A stretch of DNA of 20,000 nucleotides from an uncultured virus (IMG/VR IMGVR_UViG_3300011470_000007) (taxonomy: Duplodnaviria; Heunggongvirae; Uroviricota; Caudoviricetes), in IMG/VR virus record IMGVR_UViG_3300011470_000007, one strand, 5' to 3'. Position numbers and translations under genes: made by a program. Below, in pieces: positions 2,007 to 15,728 of the stretch. Numbering within the stretch: position 1 is the first letter of the stretch; every line of letters starts with the position of its first letter. The notes under the pieces were generated by a model that was not told the origin of the DNA, made no database searches, and was given only the letters and a program-made list of their open reading frames with translations.

Positions 2007-3050
2007 ATGCTAAGAACCCCCATCATCCGCCTAACCGCCGATAACGAGCCACTCGACGACGCCATCATGTCACGTTTGATGGATGTATCTGTTACCGATA
2101 ACAAGTCAGGCGATGCCGATGAGCTGTCTCTCACACTTGATGACCACGACGGCAAACTTGCCATGCCAAAGCGTGGCGTCAAATTGCAATGTTGGATGGG
2201 TTATATCGATGCCGGTGTCCATGACATGGGGATATATACTGTCGATAGCGTTGAATGGGGCGGCACACCCGACACCATCACTGTAAAAGCCAAATCAGCC
2301 GATATGAAAGGCAGTCTTAAGTCTGGACGCACCCAAAGCTATCATGATAAAAAATTGGGCGAAATTGCCAAAGAAGTCGCCACTCGTCATGAGCTGGAAC
2401 TTGCTATGACTGACTACTTGATGAACATTGAAGTCGGGCACATCGATCAGACTGATGAGTCCGACCTGCACTTACTGACTCGCCTTTGTTGGCAGTTTGG
2501 GGCGGTCGTCAACGTCAAACACGGTAAGTTACTTATCTTTCAGCCTTACGAGAACAAAACTGTCTCTGGGCAACCGCTTACCCTGACTGTACTAAAACGT
2601 GACAAGGGCGACCAGTTCCGTTTCAGTATTGAAGACCGACAAGGTGACGTTGATAACGTACAAGCCACTTACCATGACGCCAAGCAAGCCAAGAAAGTAA
2701 CGGTCAACACCGACAAGGACGGGCAAAAAGCCAAAAGATTAAAGGGCAATTTTAAGGATGAAAAGACTGCTACCGCCGCCGCCAATGCTGAGAAAAAACG
2801 CATCGAGGGTGAACAAGGCAAATTTAGCATTAACTGTGCGTTTGGTTATCCAGCAATTAGTACTGAGTCGCCCATTGAACTTCAGGGGTTCAAGGTTGAA
2901 ATTGATAGTTTGAAATGGACAGTGGACAAAGCCACGCATAGCTATAGCAAATCGCAGGGATTGACCACGCAGCTTGACTTGACCGCACCGATAAATGGAG
3001 AGTTTGGCGCCAAACCTGTTGATAAAAAAGATAGTAAAGCCGCTATTTAA
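2007..3050 (+). CDS. P2 GpD-family (late control D / baseplate hub) protein
   Basis: DNKSGDADELSLTLDD, HIDQTDESDLHLLTRL motifs; follows gpU; SD AAGGTG upstream. Confidence 0.92.
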   Translation: MLRTPIIRLTADNEPLDDAIMSRLMDVSVTDNKSGDADELSLTLDDHDGKLAMPKRGVKLQCWMGYIDAGVHDMGIYTVDSVEWGGTPDTITVKAKSADMKGSLKSGRTQSYHDKKLGEIAKEVATRHELELAMTDYLMNIEVGHIDQTDESDLHLLTRLCWQFGAVVNVKHGKLLIFQPYENKTVSGQPLTLTVLKRDKGDQFRFSIEDRQGDVDNVQATYHDAKQAKKVTVNTDKDGQKAKRLKGNFKDEKTATAAANAEKKRIEGEQGKFSINCAFGYPAISTESPIELQGFKVEIDSLKWTVDKATHSYSKSQGLTTQLDLTAPINGEFGAKPVDKKDSKAAI

Positions 3051-3065
3051 CGAGTTTTTGTTAGC

Positions 3066-3082
3066 TATAATTATGCTAAAAT
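3066..3082 (+). promoter_or_regulatory. Putative sigma70 promoter (TATAAT 3066-3071; extended -10 TGcTAAAAT 3074-3082)
   Basis: The extended -10 would place the start at ~3088-3089, the first base of the structured RNA that follows. Confidence 0.5.
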
Positions 3083-3087
3083 AGTTA

Positions 3088-3173
3088 TGCTTGGGTGTGT
3101 CGAGATAAGCCAACTTCCCAGATTGGACGAATAAGACTGCCGTCTCATCGTGTACGGATTTCAGCCCCAAGCA
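3088..3173 (+). ncRNA. Putative C4/CI-like tRNA-shaped antisense RNA (RNA-A)
   Basis: Closing stem TGCTTGGG 3088-3095/CCCAAGCA 3166-3173. Arm GTC 3099-3101/GAC 3135-3137 encloses CCAA 3110-3113/TTGG 3123-3126. Arm CCGT 3140-3143/ACGG 3154-3157 with loop CTCATCGTGT. Unpaired ATTTCAG 3158-3164. Same layout as 7926-8004. Confidence 0.65.
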
Positions 3174-3249
3174 CTTCATCAAGCGATAATATGCACACTA
3201 ACTTAGTCGTAACCTGCCAATCTAACACCACTCACATTTCAATACCACT

Positions 3250-4308
3250 ATGACCCCAGCCTCTCAAAAATTTAAAAATGCCTTCCTTATATTTTTCGGT
3301 TGGTTCTTTGGTATTACCTTCATGTTTACCGCTATTGGTGGTATGGTTAACGGTAATATTATACCTGCACTCATTATTTTTCTAGGTTCGTCATTGTTTA
3401 TTCCGAGTATCCGTCAATGGGTTATCAAAAAATTAAACCATAAAGTTACAAGTAAACCATTAGTGATTGGCGGAGTAATTTCCACGGTTGTAGCGTTCGC
3501 TATGCTATCACCCCAAGAGCCTACCACAAACAGCCCTCACACTACTAATGTTAGCCAAACAGTACCACAGGCAGCAACTCAAGCTCTAAGTCAACCCAAG
3601 CCTATATCTGTCAAAGCTGAACCCATCTCTTCATCCCCTACTTCCCCACAGCAAGCAACCGCACCCATAGCACTAAACACCCAAATGCAAGGCGATATAA
3701 GCTGTAAGGTGGTGGGAATTTCAGATGGTGACACACTCACTTGTCTCACCAATGACAAATCCCAAATCAAAGTACGTCTCAACCAAATTGACGCTCCAGA
3801 AAAATCACAGGCCTTTGGTACCGCCGCCAAGCAGGCATTATCGGGTTATGTGTTTGGCAAAACAGTTGGCTTAAAAACCAATGGTACCGATAAATATGGA
3901 CGTACCGTCGCTGAAGTGTTTGTCGGCGATAAAAATATCAACAAAGCAATGGTCGCCGATGGTTATGCTTGGGCATATCGTGAATATATGACGGATAACG
4001 ACTATGGTGACCTAGAGACTAGCGCACGCTCAAATACAAAAGGCTTATGGTCAGAACCTGACCCAATCTATCCGAGTGATTTTAGACGGGGCAAACGTGG
4101 CGAACAAACCGCCCCTGTCCAAACGCAAACCATTACCCAACAAGTCGAGCAAAAAGCCGTTGCAGATTCAGGTGGTAGCTGTGGCTCAAAACGATATTGC
4201 AAACAAATGGCAACCTGCGCTGAGGCACGCCATTATTTGAATGATTGTGGGGTTAGTCGACTGGATAGAGATGGTGATGGTGTACCGTGTGAAAGTTTGT
4301 GTCAATAA
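3250..4308 (+). CDS. Membrane-anchored thermonuclease (SNase-like) with C-terminal Excalibur Ca-binding domain
   Basis: About three N-terminal hydrophobic helices, P/S/T/Q linker, SNase motifs DGDTL, RLNQIDAPE, DKYGRTVA, GYAW; C-terminal CKQMATCAEA...LDRDGDGVPCE. Confidence 0.9.
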   Translation: MTPASQKFKNAFLIFFGWFFGITFMFTAIGGMVNGNIIPALIIFLGSSLFIPSIRQWVIKKLNHKVTSKPLVIGGVISTVVAFAMLSPQEPTTNSPHTTNVSQTVPQAATQALSQPKPISVKAEPISSSPTSPQQATAPIALNTQMQGDISCKVVGISDGDTLTCLTNDKSQIKVRLNQIDAPEKSQAFGTAAKQALSGYVFGKTVGLKTNGTDKYGRTVAEVFVGDKNINKAMVADGYAWAYREYMTDNDYGDLETSARSNTKGLWSEPDPIYPSDFRRGKRGEQTAPVQTQTITQQVEQKAVADSGGSCGSKRYCKQMATCAEARHYLNDCGVSRLDRDGDGVPCESLCQ

Positions 4309-4405
4309 ATATTATTATTTTGAATCAAAATTATTGTAGATAAAAACCATAGCCTCTCAACGCTTAGAAATCAGAGTGTTTTAATAAAAAATTTATTTTT
4401 TTTGT

Positions 4406-4455
4406 CTCGATATTCTAACGAAAAAAAGGTAATATAGGCGTTAGAATTGCGAGGT
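4406..4455 (+). promoter_or_regulatory. Inverted repeat overlapping the methyltransferase ribosome-binding site
   Basis: CTCG-at-ATTCTAACG 4406-4420 / CGTTAGAAT-tg-CGAG 4439-4453; SD GAGGT at 4451-4455. Confidence 0.45.
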
Positions 4456-4460
4456 GTAGT

Positions 4461-5486
4461 ATGCAAATTGAAGCCGTTGATCTGTTCTGTGGTGTAGGTG
4501 GTCTGACTGCAGGATTAATAAAGTCTGGAATTACTGTTAAAGCAGGTTACGACATAGAGCCAAGCTGCAAATTTGGCTATGAGCATAATAATAAAGCGAC
4601 TTTCGTTTTAAAGGACATTGCACAAGTTAGTGCAGATGAAATAAATTCTTGGTATTCGAAAGGAGCCATTCGTTTGCTTGCTGGCTGTGCTCCTTGTCAG
4701 CCATTTTCAAGTTATAGTAAAGGACGTGATGCGAAACTAGATAAAAAATATCCACTTCTCTACCATTTTTCAAGATTAATTGAGGAAGTATATCCTGAAT
4801 TAGTTACGATGGAGAATGTACCAGACGTTACTTCTCACCAAGTTTATCATGATTTTGTCTCTAAACTTGAATCTTTAGGATATATCATTGCCGCTCAAAA
4901 AGTTGACTGTGTGAAATACGGCATTCCACAAACTCGCAAACGCCATGTATTACTTGCAACTCGTATTTCAGAAACAATAAGCTTGATTCCGCCCACGCAT
5001 GATAAACCAGTTACAGTCAGAGAGGCTATTAAAGGATTACCTGTGCTATACGCAGGAAAACAAAATAAAAATGATCCATTACATATTTGCTCTGAGCTTA
5101 GCGACCTTAATATGCGTCGCATTAAAGCGTCGAAAGCAGGTGGCACTTGGAAAGATTGGTCATCGGATTTAATCGCAGAGTGCCATAAGAAAGATTCTGG
5201 TAAATCGTTTAGAAGTGTTTATGGTCGTATGGAATGGGATAAACCAGCACCTACTATTACGACTCAATGCTATGGTTTTGGTAATGGTCGATTCGGTCAC
5301 CCTTCGCAGCATAGAGCGATTTCAATGCGTGAGGCGGCAATCTTCCAGACATTTCCAGAAGATTACAAATTTACCGATGGTAAGGTGTTTATTAAAAAAG
5401 TGAGTAGAATGATAGGTAATGCTGTACCTGTTAGGTTGGGAGAAATTGTAGGACTTAGTTTTTTTACTAAACAAAACTATCAATAA
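4461..5486 (+). CDS. DNA (cytosine-5)-methyltransferase
   Basis: Motif I DLFCGVGG, IV GCAPCQPFS, VI MENV, VIII PQTRKRH, IX REAAIFQTFP, X IGNAVP. Confidence 0.96.
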   Translation: MQIEAVDLFCGVGGLTAGLIKSGITVKAGYDIEPSCKFGYEHNNKATFVLKDIAQVSADEINSWYSKGAIRLLAGCAPCQPFSSYSKGRDAKLDKKYPLLYHFSRLIEEVYPELVTMENVPDVTSHQVYHDFVSKLESLGYIIAAQKVDCVKYGIPQTRKRHVLLATRISETISLIPPTHDKPVTVREAIKGLPVLYAGKQNKNDPLHICSELSDLNMRRIKASKAGGTWKDWSSDLIAECHKKDSGKSFRSVYGRMEWDKPAPTITTQCYGFGNGRFGHPSQHRAISMREAAIFQTFPEDYKFTDGKVFIKKVSRMIGNAVPVRLGEIVGLSFFTKQNYQ

Positions 5487-7422
5487 GAGTCTTAATTTTG
5501 TCTGCCTCTTTTTCTTTGACCAAAAAATCAGCATATGCTGATTTTGCTTTTAGAAGCATTTCATCATAAGTTGAGATAGTATATTTGGCTGCCGCTAGCT
5601 TTGCCTCGTTCTCCTTTTGATCGCCTTCAATCCTATCACCTATCAAAAATACAACTTTGATTCTATCTTTACTGGCATGAGGATCTACTGCTTGCAAGCA
5701 TTTAAATAAAGTTTCTTTATATAAATCACCTTGTCTCATCAAATCATATATATCTAACTTTTTTGGCAATTTAGGGCGCTTTAATTCGATAATAATATGG
5801 TCATCTCCAATATTCCTATATCGTAAGTCAAACCGTCCTTTTTGTTGTTCTGGGGTTAGTTTAGCTTTCACTTTTTCGTCAAAAGCTTTATGTATATTCT
5901 GTTCTTTGAGCTCACTCCCTGCTACCCTCTCCCAAGTTGGGTCAATTAGCCATAGATGAGAATAAATGAAATCTCTAATTTTATTTTCGTAATCATTTTG
6001 GTTAATTTTATTTTCAATAATTTTTATTGTTTCCAATCTTGCTCTAACAACATCATGATAAAGTGAAATTTCATAAGAATCATAACTAGAAAGTATTCTT
6101 ATTAGTTCCGACGGTCCAGCATCTATAGCATCTGCAAGTTCAATGTTGCTTTTACTTAATCTTAATCTTTCAAATGCCAATATGGTACTTCTAAATAATT
6201 CTTTTCTATCATTTTCCTTAGGTTCATCAATTTGGAGATTAGATACTGTTTCCAAAAGAGCTTCCGCTTGCTTTTGATGAGGTACAGGTAATTCTTCTAT
6301 CCATTTTTTTAATTGGGGGTATTGTTTAACAACTTCTTCTTTATCAAATTTTTTTCTTTCAATCGACCAAATTTGATACATCTCGTTCATTAATTTCTTA
6401 CCAAACTTTAACAAAGCTTGATATCGTACATCGTCTTCACGAACTCTTTGTCTATCACTAGTAGCAATATCTTCACCATCATTTTCATCTAAGAAATCTG
6501 CTTGGATTACACCAGTAATGTAAGCTTTCATCAGCCTATTTTCAGATATTTTATCTAATATATTTTCTTGAAACACTCGTCCCCTTGAAATAACTGATAT
6601 ACCATTCAAATTACCCATATCATAAGTATTTAAATCCTTAGGTTTCAAAGCAGTTCCTAACCACCCATCAAAAGAGTAAACTTGATTATCATATATAATT
6701 TGATGGTCCGAAAAATTAAAAATTTTTACATCATCAGGAAAATTTATAGAGTCATTATTAGAAAATTTCCAAGCAAATTGCAAATTGGTAAAATCATCCC
6801 TATCAGTTTGAACAATTTTCTCATTATTTATATATACATTAAAATTATCCTTGTCACCGATAACTGAAAATCGTCTTGCAATCCTTTTTTTCATAGCAGA
6901 TATAGATTGTCCTAAACGACTCGTCAGAAGTCTTGATAATATAAATCTGGTACCGCTATTTTGTGTAAACTCTTCAACATTAATCGGCATTGGATGATAT
7001 GTTGTACCATTCGTTATATGATTTTTAAGTTGAGTTACATCAATACTTAAAGAATGGGCATCTTGGTTTTCTTTTTTAGATGTAATTTCTACATATTCAG
7101 CTATTGAAAATAAAGCAAGTTTACCGATTCCTTTTCTTCCCATTACAGGTCTACCCTTTGGACTAAATGGGTGATTTAATCTTCTTTTGTATGCAACCTT
7201 TAAAAATTTATTATTAAGATCATTTACTGACATACCATGACCATTGTCTGTAATAGTTATAATTGATTTATCATCACTAATATTAATATGAACTTCAGTT
7301 GCATCTGCATCCCATGCATTCGCAATAATCTCTGTTAAAGCAGCTGCTGTATTGCTATAAAGATTTAGACCAAGATGTTCTACTGCCGCTAAATCAACAG
7401 AAAAAGTATATTGCTCAGACAT
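5467..7422 (-). CDS. GHKL (MORC/MutL-type) ATPase fused to C-terminal PD-(D/E)XK nuclease; probable restriction partner of the methyltransferase (HgiDII-like architecture)
   Basis: Bergerat motifs EIIANAWDA, DNGHGM, GRKGIGK, GT; C-terminal GRFDL...IIIELKRP...QGDLY. SD GAGG upstream; 3' end overlaps the MTase by 20 bp. Confidence 0.85.
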   Translation of the reverse strand: MSEQYTFSVDLAAVEHLGLNLYSNTAAALTEIIANAWDADATEVHINISDDKSIITITDNGHGMSVNDLNNKFLKVAYKRRLNHPFSPKGRPVMGRKGIGKLALFSIAEYVEITSKKENQDAHSLSIDVTQLKNHITNGTTYHPMPINVEEFTQNSGTRFILSRLLTSRLGQSISAMKKRIARRFSVIGDKDNFNVYINNEKIVQTDRDDFTNLQFAWKFSNNDSINFPDDVKIFNFSDHQIIYDNQVYSFDGWLGTALKPKDLNTYDMGNLNGISVISRGRVFQENILDKISENRLMKAYITGVIQADFLDENDGEDIATSDRQRVREDDVRYQALLKFGKKLMNEMYQIWSIERKKFDKEEVVKQYPQLKKWIEELPVPHQKQAEALLETVSNLQIDEPKENDRKELFRSTILAFERLRLSKSNIELADAIDAGPSELIRILSSYDSYEISLYHDVVRARLETIKIIENKINQNDYENKIRDFIYSHLWLIDPTWERVAGSELKEQNIHKAFDEKVKAKLTPEQQKGRFDLRYRNIGDDHIIIELKRPKLPKKLDIYDLMRQGDLYKETLFKCLQAVDPHASKDRIKVVFLIGDRIEGDQKENEAKLAAAKYTISTYDEMLLKAKSAYADFLVKEKEADKIKTLIDSFV

Positions 7423-7513
7423 AAAACCCTCAATATTTTTAAACTAAATTATTAGATAAGTATCATTTTGGACATCAAAAAGCCAATCAAGACTGATTGG
7501 CTTATGCAAAATT

Positions 7514-7714
7514 TTATTTATTTTCAAACATTGGAATAACTGATCTATTGGAAGAAACTAAAGTGTCAAAGTTTTGTTTAATATCTATTACACTACCATC
7601 TAAAAAATATATTCTACATGTAGAGCTATTTTCTTTATCTATACACAAAATATTATCTAAATTAATAAAAGTTTTTATACTATTAGTTCTCTCTACTTTA
7701 ATAAACTGCGCCAT
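7514..7714 (-). CDS. Small hypothetical protein (66 aa, beta-rich, loosely FlbD/LytTR-like pattern)
   Basis: ATG with AAGGA SD; FINLDNILCI...CRIYFLDG pattern; co-oriented upstream of the GHKL gene. Confidence 0.6.
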   Translation of the reverse strand: MAQFIKVERTNSIKTFINLDNILCIDKENSSTCRIYFLDGSVIDIKQNFDTLVSSNRSVIPMFENK

Positions 7715-7767
7715 TTCTATATTCCTTATAAATGTCTGTTAATTTGTCAACAATATAACAAATTAAC

Positions 7768-7796
7768 TTGCAACCGACAAACAAAAGATTTATGAT
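7768..7796 (+). promoter_or_regulatory. sigma70 promoter for the C4-like RNA operon
   Basis: TTGCAA 7768-7773, 17-bp spacer, TATGAT 7791-7796; start ~7803. Confidence 0.65.
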
Positions 7797-7803
7797 TTAC
7801 TTA

Positions 7804-7853
7804 CTACTAAACAATCAGCGGTTCAAAAATCACCCCGTTAGCGTGCTTTTTTT
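7804..7853 (+). promoter_or_regulatory. Upstream antisense target and U-tract attenuator-like leader (P1 a1b1 / P4 seqA-like)
   Basis: ACTAAACAATCAG 7806-7818 is repeated exactly at 8024-8036. CAATCAG is complementary to CTGATTG 7979-7985. T7 run at 7847-7853. Confidence 0.55.
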
Positions 7854-7925
7854 GTGCCTAAAATTTACCAAGCTATTGTTATCATTATGGCATTGGTGGA
7901 TAATACGCACGTCAAAAACGTCTTA

Positions 7926-8004
7926 TGACGGGTCGAGAGAACCGAATAAAATACCCTATGGGAAATAAGTTCCGCCGCCTGATTGCGGTAGTTGAAGCCC
8001 GTCG
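7926..8004 (+). ncRNA. Putative C4/CI-like antisense RNA (RNA-B)
   Basis: Closing stem GACGGG 7927-7932/CCCGTC 7998-8003. Arm GAAC 7939-7942/GTTC 7969-7972 encloses CCC-TAT-GGG. Arm GCCGC 7974-7978/GCGGT 7985-7989 with loop CTGATT. CCTGATTG is complementary to CAATCAGG 8030-8037 over the SD of the next gene. Confidence 0.75.
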
Positions 8005-8045
8005 CCTACTAAGCGACAAATTAACTAAACAATCAGGAGGTCATC

Positions 8046-8567
8046 ATGACCACAATCGCTTTGGCAACCAAGCCAAATCTATTAAGCCAAATCAAACGCC
8101 GTATCTATGGCATTCCCCATCGCCGCCACGCAGCCAAGCGCATAGAGGCAGCACAACATAACATCGTCAATCACCTGACTAAACAAACCAACAGGCTACA
8201 CACCCCCTTACCTATCCAAGTCAGCACACTATGGCGCATCATTAATAATGCCATCATCGCAGGGCAATTAGATTTAACTACACTTACCGATCGACCAAGC
8301 CAACTTAAACAAGGCTTACTTTATCTATCATTTGAGCGCGTTAGTGGATTATTAGACGACGTATCGTTACCCATAGCTGATCTAACGAGCCTCGAATTTC
8401 GCACCATCATGACCTTATTGGGTGGCGTCGAAGCAGAGATTATCAGTGAGCAATCAATCGATACCACGGGTCAAGGTGAGCCACGCCTTGCCTACCGTTT
8501 ACCCATCGCCACGCTAATTAATCTCAATCAACCAATAGTTAAAGCCCAATTAGCGGAGGTGGCATAA
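8046..8567 (+). CDS. Hypothetical protein, first gene after the C4-like RNA (icd/kil/ant position)
   Basis: SD AGGAGG 8035-8040, 173 aa, stop overlaps next ATG. Confidence 0.8.
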   Translation: MTTIALATKPNLLSQIKRRIYGIPHRRHAAKRIEAAQHNIVNHLTKQTNRLHTPLPIQVSTLWRIINNAIIAGQLDLTTLTDRPSQLKQGLLYLSFERVSGLLDDVSLPIADLTSLEFRTIMTLLGGVEAEIISEQSIDTTGQGEPRLAYRLPIATLINLNQPIVKAQLAEVA

Positions 8568-8752
8568 TGTCAGAGGAAATCTTAGCCCTAATCAATCGTT
8601 GCAAAGCCTATCTGGCAGTTGACCGCTACGGACAAGATAAAGTGCAGACAATGAGAGGATACTTATTGGCACTCCAGCATCTAGGATTGATTGACCCGTG
8701 GCTGGCCTATTGCATCATCACCAGTTATGAAGAGGAGCTTGCCAATGATTAA
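8567..8752 (+). CDS. Hypothetical phage protein (61 aa)
   Basis: SD GGAGGT; TAATG coupling to the upstream gene. Confidence 0.7.
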   Translation: MSEEILALINRCKAYLAVDRYGQDKVQTMRGYLLALQHLGLIDPWLAYCIITSYEEELAND

Positions 8753-9095
8753 GCTCCCTATTGCTCGCACCCATATCGCAGGAAAACGTCGCTTTGTTTT
8801 TTATCTCAGTGACATCGTTAAGCATATCAACGACTTAACAAACGATAACAATCCACATGACAAATCATGTCGTGAGATCAGCGTTGAACGATTGCAGGAT
8901 ATGGTTAAGACGGTTAAATTAAGAGGACAACAAGATTATATTTACGTGCCAAATCGCGATGACACTGCCTTAAATTTATCAGCGACGCAAGCACTATTGA
9001 TTATTTATGGTAATAACACGGCAAGCTATGCAGAGCATGAAGCGGCTTGGACGATGTTTCACCAAATCACTGACTTTATACAAGGAGTAAAATAA
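8745..9095 (+). CDS. Hypothetical phage protein (weak Bro-N-like FVFYLSDIVKHI segment)
   Basis: ATG 8745 with SD GAGGAG preferred over 8691; stop coupled to next ATG. Confidence 0.7.
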   Translation: MIKLPIARTHIAGKRRFVFYLSDIVKHINDLTNDNNPHDKSCREISVERLQDMVKTVKLRGQQDYIYVPNRDDTALNLSATQALLIIYGNNTASYAEHEAAWTMFHQITDFIQGVK

Positions 9096-9343
9096 TGACC
9101 CCCAATCAAGCATCTATCAGTAGCGAACTATTGCGTATCTCAAGCTATGCGGGGGTCATGTCACGATTGGCGAATAATGGCAACAGCACCAAAGTAGACA
9201 CGGCGCAATTACAAACCATCTTTTCTGATATCGCCAAAGTAACAGGTTTAGCATATGCAGAAATTCAATCTATCATTAACGATGATTGCCCATTCGTCGA
9301 TAATTATGATAAGCCACCAATGTCATCTCAAACAGGCAACTAA
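9095..9343 (+). CDS. Hypothetical phage protein (82 aa)
   Basis: SD AAGGAG, TAATG coupling, followed by terminator. Confidence 0.7.
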   Translation: MTPNQASISSELLRISSYAGVMSRLANNGNSTKVDTAQLQTIFSDIAKVTGLAYAEIQSIINDDCPFVDNYDKPPMSSQTGN

Positions 9344-9357
9344 ATAGTTAGTTCCAG

Positions 9358-9388
9358 AAAAACCCTTGTCAACTGACAGGGGTTTTTT
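9358..9388. terminator. Bidirectional intrinsic terminator
   Basis: AAAAACCCTTGTC-aact-GACAGGGGTTTTTT between convergent genes. Confidence 0.88.
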
Positions 9389-9711
9389 TATAACAGTGAC
9401 TTCGCCATTTTCATAAGTCTCTCACGGTCATCAACGCCAAGCCCACGATAAATATCAAGCCAAGCTTGCTCATCAGGTGGCAACACAACTGCCCCACCTT
9501 CGACCCGTTGACCCGTCACCACATAACCTACGTCATAGCCCAAACCTCCTAACTTGAGCAAAAATTCAAGGTCGGGTGAACGCTTACCTGTTTCATAGTT
9601 GGAAAGTGTGGCAATAGCTACATCAATCGCTTTCAACACATCCGTTTGTTTTAAGCCAAGTCGCAATCTTTCGGAGCGTAGCCGCTCGCTTATAATTTCG
9701 TTGTTTAACAT
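9388..9711 (-). CDS. XRE-family HTH prophage repressor
   Basis: ISERLRSERLRLGLKQ...LSNYETGKRSPD...GYDVGYVVTG. ATG 9711 has SD AAGGTG, preferred over GTG 9723. No C-terminal peptidase domain. Confidence 0.9.
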   Translation of the reverse strand: MLNNEIISERLRSERLRLGLKQTDVLKAIDVAIATLSNYETGKRSPDLEFLLKLGGLGYDVGYVVTGQRVEGGAVVLPPDEQAWLDIYRGLGVDDRERLMKMAKSLL

Positions 9712-9800
9712 TTTTATAAACACCTTATTGACTTAAACATTTTTATAAGTCAAAATAAACCTTGTTAATTTGTTAAAAATCTAGCAAAAACATTTTAACA
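9703..9800. promoter_or_regulatory. Lysis/lysogeny switch: early promoter and candidate operators
   Basis: TTGACT 9728-9733, 17 bp, CAAAAT 9751-9756. Direct repeat AACATTTTTATAA at 9707-9719 and 9736-9748. Inverted repeat TTGACTTA 9728-9735/TAAGTCAA 9746-9753. Confidence 0.65.
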
Positions 9801-9838
9801 CCTTTTCTAACCAACCCTTTAAAAAAAGGACAATCACG

Positions 9839-10066
9839 ATGACAACCAAAATGTTAGCGGTGCGTACCCCTGAAAGCATGCACACCTACCTCAAAGTCAC
9901 AGCCTACAAAAAAGGCTCAAGCATTCAAGAATTGGTCAATGAGATATTAGCCGACCATCAAGCAAAAGACCCAGAATACCAAGGCTCTCTTAATGACTTG
10001 GTCACTGACTCCCTTACCGCATTGGCATCAATCACCCAAGATGAGGAGGTGTCTCGTGGCGTATAG
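9839..10066 (+). CDS. Ribbon-helix-helix-like DNA-binding protein (Cro/Cox position)
   Basis: MLAVRTPESMHTYLKVTAYKKGSSIQELVNEIL fits the beta-alpha-alpha RHH pattern; first gene divergent from the repressor; SD AAGGA. Confidence 0.7.
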   Translation: MTTKMLAVRTPESMHTYLKVTAYKKGSSIQELVNEILADHQAKDPEYQGSLNDLVTDSLTALASITQDEEVSRGV

Positions 10067-10326: not shown

Positions 10327-10548
10327 ATGTCAACGGCATATATCAGATGTCCGCATTGCGGCAGCAAAATGACTACCGCACGGCACCGTCAGATGAATGA
10401 GCTATTAAAAGAACTGACAGCCACTTGTCGCAATGCAGATTGCTTATTTAGCGCCAGCGTCTATGTCGAGATAGCAAGACAAATCCAACCAAGCCTTGCC
10501 CCAAAACCTGAAATAACGGGGCAGCTTATAAAAGGACAACCACGATGA
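10327..10548 (+). CDS. ogr: Ogr/Delta-family zinc-finger late transcription activator
   Basis: CPHC...C-RNAD-C...EIARQIQPS; SD GAGGT. Confidence 0.88.
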   Translation: MSTAYIRCPHCGSKMTTARHRQMNELLKELTATCRNADCLFSASVYVEIARQIQPSLAPKPEITGQLIKGQPR

Positions 10549-13205
10549 GTATTAATGACCAAGTCGTCTCGCGTCTGAAATCCGAGTACGGCTTTAAACA
10601 AGTCGGCGAATGGCTACGTGAAGGCGTATGCCCAGACTGTAGCAAAAAGTCACTTTTCACCCATGCCCATAGCCCCCGCGTCGTCAAATGCGGGCGGCTC
10701 AATAAATGTGGTTTGGAAATCCATGTTAAGGAACTATTTGACGATCTATTCAAAGACTGGTCAAAAACCTACGTCCGCACTGAAACCAACCCCAACGCTA
10801 CTGCTGACGCTTATCTAACAGAAGGACGTGGCTTAGATATCAGCAAAATCAAAGGTAGTTATACCCAAGAATCTTTTTTTGACAATAAAATCAACCAAGG
10901 CACTGCTACCGTTCGTTTTGCCTTACCCAACGGTGGCTGGTGGGAGCGTTTTATCGACCAAGCTGAGCGTTTTGACAAAAAAGCCAACTTCAAATATGGC
11001 TACAAAATTAATGGCTACTGGTGGTGGCACCCTGCAAACGCTTTGATGCCAAAAGAAATATGGATTTGTGAGGGTATCTTTGATGCTATCGCATTAGCAG
11101 AGCATGGGTTTGCCACTGTCAGCCCACTAAGCTGCGTTAATTTCCCAGAAAATTCATTATACGAATTAAAGGCAAAATACGATGAGAAACGCCAAACATT
11201 ACCAACTCTTGTATGGGCTTTTGACAATGATGCCGCAGGGCAACGCTACACCAAGCAATTTATCGAACAAGCCAAAAAAATCGGATTTGAGAGTGCCGCT
11301 GCCCAACCGCCGTATGACAAACACAAAAAGCTTGACTGGAACGACCTGCACGAACTCGGGCAACTAACAGACGAGCATCTCAAAAAATACCGCTACTTTG
11401 GTGACTTGCTCACCGCAAAATCACCGACGGACGCAGCGGTCATCCGCTATATGCACAGGAAAATTAACCAATTTTATTTTGAGCATGACAACCGCACCTA
11501 CTGGTTTGAACTTGATACTAATAAATTGTCAAAACTAATGGATGTGCCTGACCATGAGGTTGAAGACATCATGGGTAATATGCCAGACGAAGACGAACAG
11601 ATGGCGAAATTTGTCCGTCAGACATCCAACACGCATGAGATTTTAAATGCCAAGATTGAAGCCCTGTATTTTCAGCGCAATGACGTCACAGACGAATCCT
11701 GGTACTTCACCCGTGTCACTACTAACAAAGGCGACAAGCAAACCACCATCACCGGTGACCAGTTATCTAGTCCCAGTAAATTAAAACCGCGTTTGTTATC
11801 GGTTTTTGCGGGTGTACTTTGGACAGGGTCAGCTATGCAATTAGATATCATCGCCAAGCACCAAATGGAGGGGCTAAAAGAAGTCAAAACCACGGACTTT
11901 ATTGGTTACGCCAAAGAGCACCAAGCCTATATCTTTAATGATGTGGCAATATCCAAAGGCAAAGTCGTCGCCAAAAATAGCCAAGACTATTACAAAATCG
12001 GTCGCCTTGAAATCAAATCATTGGCCAATGACCCTGTATTGCACATCAACACCAAAGACAAGCCTGATTTTAGTTGGTGGCATAACTTTCATCGCGTTCG
12101 CGGTGCATACGGTACGATTGTCATGGCTTGGTGGCTTGGCACTTACTTTGCCGAGCAAATCCGCGGACTTGATCGCTCATATCCATTCTTTGAATTGGTA
12201 GGACAAGCAGGCGCAGGTAAATCACGTCTGCTTGAATTTATGTGGAAACTCTCAGGTCGAGAAGACTACGAAGGGTTTGACCCATCCAAATCTACAAGCG
12301 TGGCGGTGTACCGCAACTTTGCCCAAGTCGCAAACCTACCTATCGCCCTAATCGAAGGCGACCGTAACGACGAAGACGGCAAAGCCAAATCATTCAAAAC
12401 CTTTGAGTGGGACTCACTCAAAGACGCATTTAATGGTCGCTCCATCCGCTCTAAAGGCGTCAAAAATAACGGAAATGACACTTACAGTCCGCCATTTCGT
12501 GCCGCCGTGATGATATCCCAGAATGAAGAAATCCAAGCCAGTGAGGCGATGCTAACCCGTATTATTCACGTCAAACTCACCCGCGACGGTCAGACGCTAG
12601 AGACCAAGCACATCGTCGACAGCCTTGATCGATTGCCCATCGAGCTAACCAATCGCTTTATGGCGCATGCACTGAAAAATGAACAAGCGATTTTAGAAAC
12701 TTACCAACAGCGAATCCGTATGTATGAGGCACGCTATCACGAGTTTGGTGTTACCCATACTCGTATTGCCCTCAATCATGCACAAATAGCCGCCATGATT
12801 GACTGTTTGCAAACACATGTACTGTCTGGATTGATGACGGACCAACAAGCCGAGCAAGCTAAGCAAGCATTATTTGAAATGGCGCAAACCCGAGTTCAAC
12901 GCTTACAAGCCGACCACCCAGACGTTGATAAATTCTGGAGCGTATTTGAATTTTTAATGTCAACAGGCAAGTTTGTTTGTCATACCAATATAAACGACCC
13001 AAGTCGCAAAATCGGTATCAATCTCAACCATTTTTATAAGGTGGCAAGGGAAAATTACCAAGACTTACCAGACATCACCCAAATGAAACGCCTGCTAAAA
13101 AATAGTAGCCGTTATAAATTCGTTGATAGCAATATCAGCGTTATGTCAGTAATTGATGGCTTTAAAACCATGAAGTGCTGGATTTTTACTAAACCTACTG
13201 AATAG
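10545..13205 (+). CDS. Replication protein: Zn finger + TOPRIM primase + P-loop helicase (P4 alpha-like organisation)
   Basis: CPDC...CGRLNKC; TOPRIM ICEGIFDA, AFDNDAAG, DWNDL; Walker A GQAGAGKS; ATGA overlap with ogr. Confidence 0.9.
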   Translation: MSINDQVVSRLKSEYGFKQVGEWLREGVCPDCSKKSLFTHAHSPRVVKCGRLNKCGLEIHVKELFDDLFKDWSKTYVRTETNPNATADAYLTEGRGLDISKIKGSYTQESFFDNKINQGTATVRFALPNGGWWERFIDQAERFDKKANFKYGYKINGYWWWHPANALMPKEIWICEGIFDAIALAEHGFATVSPLSCVNFPENSLYELKAKYDEKRQTLPTLVWAFDNDAAGQRYTKQFIEQAKKIGFESAAAQPPYDKHKKLDWNDLHELGQLTDEHLKKYRYFGDLLTAKSPTDAAVIRYMHRKINQFYFEHDNRTYWFELDTNKLSKLMDVPDHEVEDIMGNMPDEDEQMAKFVRQTSNTHEILNAKIEALYFQRNDVTDESWYFTRVTTNKGDKQTTITGDQLSSPSKLKPRLLSVFAGVLWTGSAMQLDIIAKHQMEGLKEVKTTDFIGYAKEHQAYIFNDVAISKGKVVAKNSQDYYKIGRLEIKSLANDPVLHINTKDKPDFSWWHNFHRVRGAYGTIVMAWWLGTYFAEQIRGLDRSYPFFELVGQAGAGKSRLLEFMWKLSGREDYEGFDPSKSTSVAVYRNFAQVANLPIALIEGDRNDEDGKAKSFKTFEWDSLKDAFNGRSIRSKGVKNNGNDTYSPPFRAAVMISQNEEIQASEAMLTRIIHVKLTRDGQTLETKHIVDSLDRLPIELTNRFMAHALKNEQAILETYQQRIRMYEARYHEFGVTHTRIALNHAQIAAMIDCLQTHVLSGLMTDQQAEQAKQALFEMAQTRVQRLQADHPDVDKFWSVFEFLMSTGKFVCHTNINDPSRKIGINLNHFYKVARENYQDLPDITQMKRLLKNSSRYKFVDSNISVMSVIDGFKTMKCWIFTKPTE

Positions 13206-13215
13206 GAAAAATACG

Positions 13216-13425
13216 ATGACCGACATTATCGACCAAGCCAATGACGTCGCCCAACAATCCATCGAGCGAGCAATTGCTAACGCCCCAAAATTCAATCGCC
13301 CATCGTTGACAGAATGTAAAGACTGTGGCGAACCAATCCCACTAAAACGGCAACAACTTGGCGGCGTTACTCGCTGTATTGACTGCCAGGAATACCACGA
13401 CAAGAAGCACCGACATGGCAACTAA
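13216..13425 (+). CDS. TraR/DksA C4-type zinc-finger protein
   Basis: MTDIIDQA; CKDCGEPIPLKRQ...RCIDCQ. Confidence 0.92.
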   Translation: MTDIIDQANDVAQQSIERAIANAPKFNRPSLTECKDCGEPIPLKRQQLGGVTRCIDCQEYHDKKHRHGN

Positions 13426-14273: not shown

Positions 14274-15440
14274 ATGCAAAAAATATCATCAGGCATTGAA
14301 CCGCTCAAAACCGCCATCAGAATTTGGTGGAAAATCGACGGTGAGCGTCACCGCGAGACTATACATAACAGCCCACCCACCGATGCCAACCTTGCCACCG
14401 CCAAAGCCACTGCAGAAATGATAGCCCAGCAACTACGCATGGGTATTTTTGACCGTGATACCGTATTCCCCGACTCATCAAAAAGAGCTGACCGCTATTT
14501 TGGATACTATATCCACCAATGGCGAAAAGTTGAGACCAACAAAGTCGCCAAAATATCATTTGACACCTACGACAGCAAAGTCAAAACCCACATCGAACCA
14601 TATTGGGGCATGAAACCTATCGCTAAGATTGGCGTAGAAGATATAGAGGAATGGGTTTATAACGTACTATTACAAAAACTATCGACCAAAACAGTCAAAG
14701 AAATTCTCATGCTATGGCGCAAAATTTACAGCTACTGGGCAAGACATCAAAAAACCATCAACGACCCAACCAAGTACATATCACTAGGACAAACTGACCC
14801 AGATGATATCGACCCATTTGACCGCGACGAAATAACAAGGATATTAAACCACCCAACAACCCCTACCCTGCATAACCTTTATACAGTCATGCTGTGGAGC
14901 GGATTATCATTCCACGAACTGATAAGTTTAGCGGTCGAAGATTTAGACCTAGAAAAAGGCTGCTTATTCGTCAATCGCAGCTTTGTTCGTGAACAATACC
15001 GCGTAACAAAAAACCGCCGCCGCAAACGCCAAGTCGACTTACTGCCCCAAGTCATAACAGCGCTAAAAAATCAAATCGAGCAGGTGAGCAACAACCAAAA
15101 AAACAGCATCCAAATCACCGACCGAGATAATAAAAAAATAAAATCTCAAACCCTCACGTGGCTTTGGTATGACGATACATCAAAAACCCACTTTACCTAC
15201 AGCCAATTATCTCGGCGCTGGAAGTCGCACTTGGAATCCTGTGGCATACGCTACCGACCACTCAATAACGGCAGGCACACCTATGCAAGCCAAGTGCTAT
15301 CAACAGGTGCAGTGACAGCAGAATGGCTTGCCAATCAGCTTGGACATACCAACACTGACATGATTCACCGTCACTACGGCAAATTTATTCCCAAGGACGC
15401 AAACCACATCATAAAAAACCTAGCCAACGCCCTGCAATAA
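14274..15440 (+). CDS. int: Tyrosine recombinase / phage integrase with N-terminal arm-binding domain
   Basis: IRIWWKIDGERHRE arm domain; WSGLSFHEL, TK, GRHTYAS, QLGH, HY; next to tRNA 3' end. Confidence 0.93.
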   Translation: MQKISSGIEPLKTAIRIWWKIDGERHRETIHNSPPTDANLATAKATAEMIAQQLRMGIFDRDTVFPDSSKRADRYFGYYIHQWRKVETNKVAKISFDTYDSKVKTHIEPYWGMKPIAKIGVEDIEEWVYNVLLQKLSTKTVKEILMLWRKIYSYWARHQKTINDPTKYISLGQTDPDDIDPFDRDEITRILNHPTTPTLHNLYTVMLWSGLSFHELISLAVEDLDLEKGCLFVNRSFVREQYRVTKNRRRKRQVDLLPQVITALKNQIEQVSNNQKNSIQITDRDNKKIKSQTLTWLWYDDTSKTHFTYSQLSRRWKSHLESCGIRYRPLNNGRHTYASQVLSTGAVTAEWLANQLGHTNTDMIHRHYGKFIPKDANHIIKNLANALQ

Positions 15441-15651: not shown

Positions 15652-15728
15652 TGGTGGCGATGAAGAGACTTGAACTCTTGACCTCACGATTATGAGTCGT
15701 GCGCTCTAACCAGCTGAGCTACATCGCC
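15652..15728 (-). tRNA. tRNA with CAT anticodon, probably elongator tRNA-Met (Ile2 not excluded); likely attachment site
   Basis: Reverse complement GGCGATGTAGCTCAGCTGGTTAGAGCGCACGACTCATAATCGTGAGGTCAAGAGTTCAAGTCTCTTCATCGCCACCA, 77 nt; full cloverleaf, encoded CCA, G1-C72 pair (not initiator). Confidence 0.97.

Follow-up and report, generated by a model that had tools for sequence, protein, structure and literature searches.

An orphan RNA gene of the sRNA-Xcc1 lineage in a P2-like prophage and its complementarity to distant early-gene starts

Introduction

What is encoded in the gap between the tail gene gpD and a nuclease gene of a P2-like prophage, and could it act on genes several kilobases away? 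The question is raised by positions 3088-3173 of a 20,000-nucleotide (nt) stretch of an uncultured virus (IMG/VR record IMGVR_UViG_3300011470_000007), and this whole stretch is called the window here. The window is the right part of a P2-like prophage, and the nearest public sequences to it come from the Moraxella osloensis group. The initial annotation described the segment as an orphan C4-like RNA and proposed that it blocks translation of the distant replicase gene in trans, in addition to the protein repressor. The immunity of P2-like phages is textbook protein-repressor control, and RNA-based immunity is known for P1 and P7 (c4) and for the satellite P4 (CI). Searches of open-access full texts turned up no report of an RNA of this kind in P2-like phages. 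The comparisons reported below confirmed a conserved structured-RNA gene, related it to the sRNA-Xcc1 family, and placed complementary sites of its loop over the start codons of several early genes.

The RNA gene and its promoter

Two models were used in the searches, R1, which was built from five window-type and Mu-type sequences, and the broader R2. Positions 3088-3173 (+ strand) scored 105.7 bits with R1 and 88 bits with R2. Together with the limits of the homologues and the covariation of the helices, these scores confirmed, as far as sequence comparison can, that the segment is a real, conserved structured-RNA gene of about 85 nt, an orphan of the sRNA-Xcc1 / c4-like antisense lineage. 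In a DNA search, three of 61 related genomes contained the stretch, and in each of them the homology was limited by the closing stem of the fold. Pattern scans recovered the whole element in 8 of 9 matches among viral contigs, and further scans returned the same eight contigs. Among genome contigs the element was present in 3 of 27 matches, the remaining 24 being due to chance, and a metagenome scan gave ten carriers among the 80 stretches searched (of 94) with no new loop type. R1 matched in 11 of 151 Moraxellaceae genomes. A blastn search against the phage collection returned zero matches, and R2 did not find the RNA in 14 more distant P2-like prophage loci (L087-L100).

The extended -10 element that had been noted just before the segment, TGcTAAAAT, was found at 3074-3082 (+ strand) and ends 5 nt before position 3088. 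An alternative TATAAT is located at 3066-3071, also ahead of the RNA gene. In all copies read by eye, a -10 hexamer, mostly TGnTATAAT, preceded the closing stem at a distance of 5-6 nt from its first base. A consensus promoter scan, which demands a -35 element, reported no + strand promoter before the RNA. Since transcription from the conserved -10 box would begin at the base of this stem, RNase P is not required for generating the 5' end, and the arrangement suggests that the 5' end is primary. At the other end, a terminator-like hairpin was seen by eye within about 20 nt 3' of the RNA in many copies.

Fold and covariation

As judged from the alignment, the family fold has four parts: a closing stem, arm 1 with its two internal loops, arm 2 as a hairpin whose loop has 10 nt, and a single strand of 7 nt. 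In the window, all of these lie on the + strand. The closing stem (helix 1) is formed by 3088-3095 and 3166-3173; 7 of its 7 pairs were changed on both sides among the homologues and 100% of the alignment cells were paired. Arm 1 (3099-3137) contains helices 3 and 4 of the covariation test. Its outer stem, GUC/GAC, joins 3099-3101 to 3135-3137, and its A-rich internal loops, GAGAUAAG / ACGAAUAA, are conserved. Arm 2 (3140-3157) has the stem CCGU/ACGG (helix 5), with 4 of 4 pairs changed on both sides, and the 10-nt loop CUCAUCGUGU at 3144-3153, which is the proposed antisense loop. The single-stranded segment AUUUCAG at 3158-3164 is called segment J below.

The covariation was evaluated on a 19-sequence alignment (A3), which includes members above the sRNA-Xcc1 gathering score and which was fitted to a covariance model and so leans towards structure. 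Standard pairs were formed in 96.9% of the cells, compared with 65.9% for shuffled partners and at most 41.7% for slid-partner controls. Changes on both sides were present in 18 of 20 pairs, which was matched by 0 of 500 shuffles. Stem covariation in homologues had been set beforehand as a check on the fold, and these compensatory changes supply it.

The minimum free energy (MFE) structure of the window RNA alone was -24.3 kcal/mol (z = -1.54) and contained the closing stem. A helix specific to this structure, GAGAU/AUUUC, was rejected, as its covariation was no better than that of shuffled columns. The closing stem with two arms that the initial annotation had described is therefore supported as the covarying consensus of the family; as the structure of the single sequence it did not stand, because the MFE structure pairs most of the loop and ATTTCAG.

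The inner hairpin of arm 1 (3110-3126) is variable, with several unrelated forms, and it is absent from the Mu-type copy. One variant of it (L001, L032 and L077) holds CAUCGUG, the core of the arm-2 loop, mostly within a stem, and this may be a duplicated antisense loop.

Family assignment

An Rfam scan of the window returned only a tRNA and a chance match to a long noncoding RNA (lncRNA) model. The matches of R1 in other genomes were more informative, since Rfam itself names them sRNA-Xcc1 (RF02221): two exceeded the gathering score of 53 bits (65.3 and 58.1 bits) and five scored 33-39 bits. R1 found L067 (E = 0.0034) and L068 (E = 0.00037) in 176 kb, with intermediates at E values of at most 1e-7, and homology to accepted sRNA-Xcc1 members was detected in this way. 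The window RNA also shares the architecture of the family, with a closing stem of about 9 bp, an internal-looped arm 1, an arm-2 hairpin and a U-rich single strand, and its helices covary. The window sequence itself did not reach the gathering score, and the curated model gave no reportable score for it. On this comparative evidence the window RNA is best described as a diverged sRNA-Xcc1 relative below the reach of the curated model.

The name "C4-like RNA" was kept only in part. The c4 architecture is present, but the C4 model (RF01695, clan CL00128) matched neither in the window nor, at E values up to 1, in the loci of nine relatives, and the lineage is that of sRNA-Xcc1. With the same tool the C4 model gave 68.8 bits for P1 c4, for which R2 gave 5.8 bits. 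A tRNA-like gene, a hammerhead or other small ribozyme, a CRISPR-repeat mimic, an attachment site and a riboswitch, which had no Rfam support, were also considered; these candidates were dropped from inspection of the sequence.

Canonical relatives of the RNA

In the canonical copies of the family, the RNA immediately precedes a gene (all 11 of the copies read). This gene, 50-80 nt downstream, was of an antirepressor type in 5 of 5 cases scanned against Pfam, namely KilA-N, Bro-N with or without ORF6C, or P22_AR_N plus ORF6C. Two further downstream genes (179 and 173 aa) had no PHROG match, so that 5 of the 7 genes scanned were of the antirepressor type. In all 11 canonical copies examined, two segments of the RNA were complementary to the downstream gene's ribosome site, as seen with RNAduplex in nine (6 + 3) and by eye in two. 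The arm-2 loop pairs over or next to the Shine-Dalgarno (SD) sequence or the start codon, and the partner of the single strand that follows arm 2 lies about 3-12 nt upstream of that site (a spacing of 4 nt in the two copies read by eye). Both the loop and its target vary among copies, for example CUGUUUA/UAAACAG, CUUAUGA/UCAUAAG and CUAUUGA/UCAAUAG. These pairings indicate that the canonical RNAs of the sRNA-Xcc1 lineage are c4-like antisense guards of the downstream gene.

Second, canonical copies, each with its own -10 box, were present in the cargo of related phages (L081:15238-15314, L077:12269-12347, L069:9739-9833 and L086:3949-4028). For these copies as well, the downstream ribosome site matches the loop and the single strand, and their downstream genes include the two of 179 and 173 aa mentioned above. 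In two genomes (G113:C1 and G141:C1; L063 and L064) a canonical RNA and its KilA-N gene adjoin gpD and converge on it. The RNA module therefore seems to settle preferentially behind gpD, in either orientation.

Complementarity of the loop to early-gene starts in the window

The loop segment CTCATCGTG (3144-3152) occurs at one other place in the window, as its exact reverse complement at 10541-10549. This site spans the primase ATG, as had been reported. To place this match, the duplex energy of the loop was ranked against the 71 open reading frame (ORF) starts of both strands. Of the 71 starts, 11 are in the early region, and ranks 1 to 4 were all among these; a top four made up of early starts was obtained with 0 of 500 shuffled loops. 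A target rank no better than that of shuffled sequences had been named as a reason to abandon the proposal, and the window loop behaved differently. Three of the four top-ranked starts belong to called genes.

The best-ranked site (-14.3 kcal/mol) is predicted target 2, the 9-mer CACGAUGAG at 10541-10549 (+ strand), over the start codon of the primase. Rank 3 is predicted target 1, the 8-mer CACGAUGA at 9835-9842 (+ strand), over the start codon of the Arc-like ORF 9839-10066; this site is also present in L079, L081 and L086. Rank 4 is predicted target 3, the 7-mer ACGAUGA at 13213-13219 (+ strand), over the start codon of the DksA/TraR-like gene, and its equivalent is 9 nt in L081 and 8 nt in L086. 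The primase start therefore ranks first, as the annotation would have it, but the replicase is not the sole candidate target. The primase ATG shares the sequence ATGA (10545-10548) with the stop codon of ogr, and the proposed RNA site also spans this translational-coupling junction.

Rank 2 is a further match, ACGAUGAG(A) at 11179-11187 (+ strand; 8-mer at 11179-11186), at the ATG of a 61-aa ORF (11182-11367). It was known from the outset and had been cited as a caution against chance; the count for the whole RNA is at the chance level. The ORF lies in another frame inside the primase gene, with an SD-like AAGG and the start motif ACGATGAG as in the early genes. The match is conserved in L079, and the ORF had no PHROG match. 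In L085, the motif CCACGATG was seen at an ATG inside the primase gene and in its frame, with 387 aa remaining. The 11182 ORF and the L085 internal ATG may be internal starts or overlapping genes.

A distance of 6.7-10 kb separates the RNA gene, which is not part of the early operon, from the matched sites. The signal is where the loop matches fall, not the bare existence of matches.

Segment J

Segment J is invariant among the orphan copies and is the second antisense segment in the canonical ones. In the window, its complement CTGAAAT is found at 10508-10514 (+ strand), inside the 3' end of ogr and 26 nt upstream of target 2. It is conserved in L081 and missing in L069 and L086. A longer complement, CTGAAATCCG at 10575-10584 (+ strand), is the reverse complement of CGGATTTCAG (3155-3164), as annotated; it lies inside the primase ORF at +31, in Arg-Leu-Lys-Ser codons. 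In relatives its CTGAA core is held by coding constraint. L086 has a compensatory 8-nt match at this site and other relatives match weakly. In three phages, CTGAA also precedes the loop site of the gene that follows the primase, at a distance of 5-9 nt. Since the J matches are either inconsistent or in codons conserved for the protein, we do not take them as support. Of the two segments, only the loop has support from placement in the window, so the complementarity of ATTTCAG to CTGAAAT exists as described and the bipartite pairing drawn from it is not supported.

Complementarity of the loop in related phages

The locus of each orphan was scanned for exact complements of its own arm-2 loop of at least 7 nt. 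L081 holds three copies of ACACGATGA, one each at the first early gene, the primase and the gene that follows the primase, and these same three genes account for three of the four copies of CGATGAGT in L086. L085, L084, L082 and L182 have (A)CCACGAT-G at the starts of the first early gene and of other early ORFs. Per phage, there were 1-5 sites of at least 7 nt at starts with SD and ATG, compared with means of 0.02-0.6 for shuffled loops. The enrichment had P values of at most 0.007 in 5 of 7 phages, 0.014 in L085 and 0.095 in L069. Counts of ACGATG per locus differed only mildly between phages with and without the RNA, a comparison that is confounded by relatedness.

L069 has a divergent loop, UUUGUUUUCCG, and its predicted targets differ accordingly. 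The sequence GGAAAACA is present just twice on that strand of the 20-kb locus, each time over a ribosome site, once at the orthologue of the first early gene and once at the orthologous primase. The gene that follows the primase has GGAAAAC ahead of its ATG, and the CACGATG motif is absent from the L069 starts. Covariation of loop and target in Moraxellaceae prophages, which had been suggested as a check, thus appeared as one co-change, with P = 0.095 against shuffled loops.

These data bear on the possibility that the RNA is real and structured but has another partner, such as a host mRNA, a transcript of another prophage or a protein. The early-start matches would then be a by-product of a CAU-containing loop, and the motif shared by the starts would be kept for other reasons. 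A protein or other fixed partner fits the invariant segment J and the internal loops GAnAUAAG / ACGAAUAAG, and it also fits a loop core, AUCGUG, that is nearly invariant across quite diverged phages. The homologue of a Mu-like prophage has a different loop without a clear early-gene target, and short matches are frequent. However, the four best of 71 starts are all early, which 0 of 500 shuffled loops equalled; the same genes are matched in L081 and L086; loop and targets change together in L069; and 11 of 11 canonical relatives use the arm-2 loop for antisense pairing. We consider another partner unlikely.

Orphan copies and the cargo edge

The window type and the lineages L081/L071, L069, L086, L085/L084 and L082/L083 have an orphan RNA immediately 3' of gpD and in the orientation of that gene; further carriers of orphan copies are L066, L126, L182 and L136/L157/L173. 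None of these copies has a complementary site beside it. For 3088-3173 this agrees with the original observation that no target adjoins the RNA. Among the window ORFs scanned there was no member of the antirepressor families, and the genes next to the RNA encode a nuclease, a C5 methylase and a GHKL ATPase.

The position behind gpD would suit a lytic timing device based on the same pairing, in which RNA made in bulk by read-through of the late tail operon stops early-gene translation late and plays no part in lysogen immunity. Every P2-type orphan copy comes immediately behind gpD with the same orientation, and the window lacks a terminator between the two. However, each copy keeps a -10 box placed for a start at the closing stem, which read-through would make needless, and release from a long transcript would require 5' processing. 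The Mu-type copy, moreover, faces late genes instead of following them. A role confined to lytic timing is decidedly unlikely in our judgement.

Homology with related phages stops at 3171/3172, within the 3' strand of the closing stem. At least seven different right flanks were found in related contigs, and four continuations past this point were seen in four sequencing runs. Related phages hold other genes at the position of the window's cargo. Since homology ends here with many right flanks, the RNA appears to mark the edge of a variable cargo region (3171-7422 in the window). As a marker of the edge of a hotspot for cargo (defence and moron genes), it aids the reading of prophage islands in the Moraxella group.

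The same boundary raises the question of whether the element is mainly a promoter and leader, or a recombination anchor, for the cargo, with the fold as a relic of a decayed canonical module. Besides the many right flanks, this view has in its favour that transcription from the window promoter would run into the nuclease gene at 3250 without meeting a terminator. Many copies, however, are followed by an immediate terminator or by a gene on the other strand, and compensatory changes in all helices indicate selection on the fold. This explanation is highly improbable.

The Mu-type homologue (L041:255-325; also L040 and L102, and G006:C1 at about 2253254) has a shorter arm 1 and the loop GUCCUC. 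Its position is about 100 nt in from the end of an unrelated, Mu-like M. osloensis prophage, where it adjoins com/mom-like genes. A target search for this copy gave only a 7-nt match, to the SD sequence of a neighbouring convergent 81-aa ORF. The Mu-like prophage interrupts a MoxR gene, and repeated GCGTTATAAAT motifs at its end resemble transposase sites.

Proposed mechanism

We propose that the window RNA is a trans-acting translational repressor of early genes, a role that the comparisons make narrowly probable. An RNA of the sRNA-Xcc1 lineage would be transcribed from its own extended -10 promoter. In its usual form, the arm-2 loop and the following single strand would pair with two sites in the ribosome region and block translation. 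In the P2-like phages of Moraxellaceae, one copy would have become detached and now lies behind gpD at the cargo border. Its loop CUCAUCGUGU would pair in trans with the last bases before the AUG, the AUG itself and the 1-2 bases after it, and the targets would be the Arc-like first early gene, the primase, the DksA-like gene and the internal ORF. Such pairing would keep 30S subunits and the initiator tRNA off the early mRNAs. The lytic/replication operon would thereby be held down in the resident prophage and in incoming relatives, and the RNA would form a second immunity layer beside the helix-turn-helix (HTH) repressor at 9388-9723. We infer that the RNA is made, that its pairing represses translation, and that it acts either in lysogeny or, via tail-operon read-through, in a late shut-off.

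A wider form of this proposal is an RNA regulon of Moraxellaceae P2-like phages, in which early genes share a start-codon 'address' that is read by one distant loop, so that immunity specificity can be switched. L069, with its GGAAAACA addresses and UGUUUUCC loop, would be an example of such a switch. We regard the regulon as possible, at somewhat less than an even chance.

Several observations weigh against the proposed repression. Rfam found neither C4 nor sRNA-Xcc1 in 2950-3350, even at E values up to 10. The single-sequence ensemble pairs most of the arm-2 loop and segment J, and for the window sequence the consensus fold (-18.4 kcal/mol) is 5.9 kcal/mol above the MFE. A consensus scan found no terminator 3' of the RNA in the window, so the 3' end would need processing. 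No run recorded as RNA contains the stretch of the RNA gene; four wastewater runs labelled RNA-Seq span 2600-3172 as contigs, and these are probably DNA and carry no information on transcripts.

The complementarity has its own weak points. The matches are short (7-9 nt), and the 9-nt count for the whole RNA is at the chance level (11 k-mer matches on the + strand, compared with about 11 for shuffled RNAs when both strands are counted). A loop with CAU in it is generally prone to matching start codons. A matrix of duplex energies for 30-nt cognate and non-cognate pairs shows no diagonal; we discarded this matrix as a target test, as long internal loops and GC-rich stem bases dominate it and make it uninformative. 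Segment J has no consistent partner across the relatives, so that the two-site mode of c4 was not reproduced. At the primase start, L085, L084 and L082 have only a 5-nt match. All orphan loops but one share AUCGUG, and because of this shared core most orphan phages are not independent tests; the covariation is a single event, in L069. There, the A-rich target gave only P = 0.095 against shuffled loops because of the A-rich sequence, and the weight of this case comes from matches on two orthologous genes, for which an informal estimate is below 0.01.

Comparison with known systems

sRNA-Xcc1 was first described in integron cassettes of Xanthomonas campestris. The available text of PMC7313666 and PMC12189769 describes it as a trans-acting small RNA (sRNA) under HrpG/HrpX control; in that of PMC12189769 its targets are predicted only, and no experimentally shown bacterial target is named. 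Like sRNA-Xcc1, the window RNA is borne by a mobile element and has a closing stem, an arm 1 with A-rich loops, an arm 2 and a U-rich strand. Canonical members, however, adjoin the next gene and pair with its ribosome site, whereas the window RNA is without an adjacent target. If the proposed repression is correct, it would provide a concrete working model for this widespread family.

The c4 RNA of P1 is cut from a longer transcript; c4 and P4 CI RNAs are tRNA-like substrates that RNase P matures from their precursors. In the P1 record, a2 directly follows c4, and b2 lies 22 nt further on, 10 nt before icd. The Rfam C4 layout is shared with the window RNA: a closing stem, hairpin 1, hairpin 2 (with a 12-nt loop), a 7-nt single strand and the closing stem again. 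As in P1 c4, the canonical relatives of the window RNA set the loop and the single strand against two sites in the ribosome region of an antirepressor-type gene, and like the c4 of P1 and P7 the window RNA would add an immunity layer to that of a protein repressor. In sequence, no relationship with P1 c4 is detectable, as judged by the C4 scans and the 5.8 bits of R2. The c4 gene sits in the c4-icd-ant operon upstream of the antirepressor, whereas the window RNA does not. In the window, the promoter abuts the RNA, the predicted targets are distant, multiple and at the start codon, and only one antisense segment is supported. P1 and P7 differ in c4, and a comparable switching of loop and address would, if real, give rise to heteroimmune phage types. 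The window RNA would then be a trans, multi-target form of the c4 principle.

The CI RNA of P4 is a small structured immunity RNA that represses the primase-helicase operon, in trans on superinfecting genomes. It works by terminating transcription at sites on either side of its own gene, which is part of that operon. The matches of the window RNA, in contrast, are start codons several kb away, and this position points to a translational rather than a terminating block.

The nearest precedent is a remark on APSE phages, in which a c4-family RNA is suggested to pair with the distant DNA polymerase gene (PMC7313666). As far as the available text of that source goes, the APSE RNA resembles the window RNA in being directed at a distant replication gene and not at a neighbouring antirepressor. 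It differs in being an Rfam C4 member from another phage type with its site at the 3' end of the gene, and no multi-gene pattern is described for it there (PMC7313666). If the proposed repression by the window RNA holds, an RNA layer would be added to P2-type immunity, the first RNA-based immunity described for P2-like phages. It would also be a case in which an antisense module, once linked in cis to its target, came loose and was redirected to several genes that have a start-site motif in common.

Gene map of the window

The RNA gene lies in the 199-nt gap that separates gpD (2007-3050), itself preceded by the tail gene gpU (1557-1997), from the first cargo gene, which encodes a secreted SNase/Excalibur nuclease (3250-4308). 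The remaining cargo consists of a C5 cytosine methylase gene (4461-5486) and, converging on it from the minus strand, a gene for a 651-aa GHKL ATPase (phrog_6203; 5467-7422). Six small ORFs on one strand occupy the interval from the cargo to the repressor (7497-9343), and Pfam and PHROG scans of these returned zero matches. The HTH repressor gene (9388-9723) is on the minus strand, and the early operon diverges from it. The first gene of this operon (9839-10066) has a weak Arc-like PHROG match. It is followed by ogr (10327-10548), the 886-aa Toprim primase gene (10545-13205) and the DksA/TraR-like zinc-finger gene (13216-13425). The integrase gene (14274-15440) and a tRNA gene on the minus strand (15655-15728) lie beyond them. 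The C5 methylase and the GHKL ATPase may constitute a restriction-modification or defence pair.

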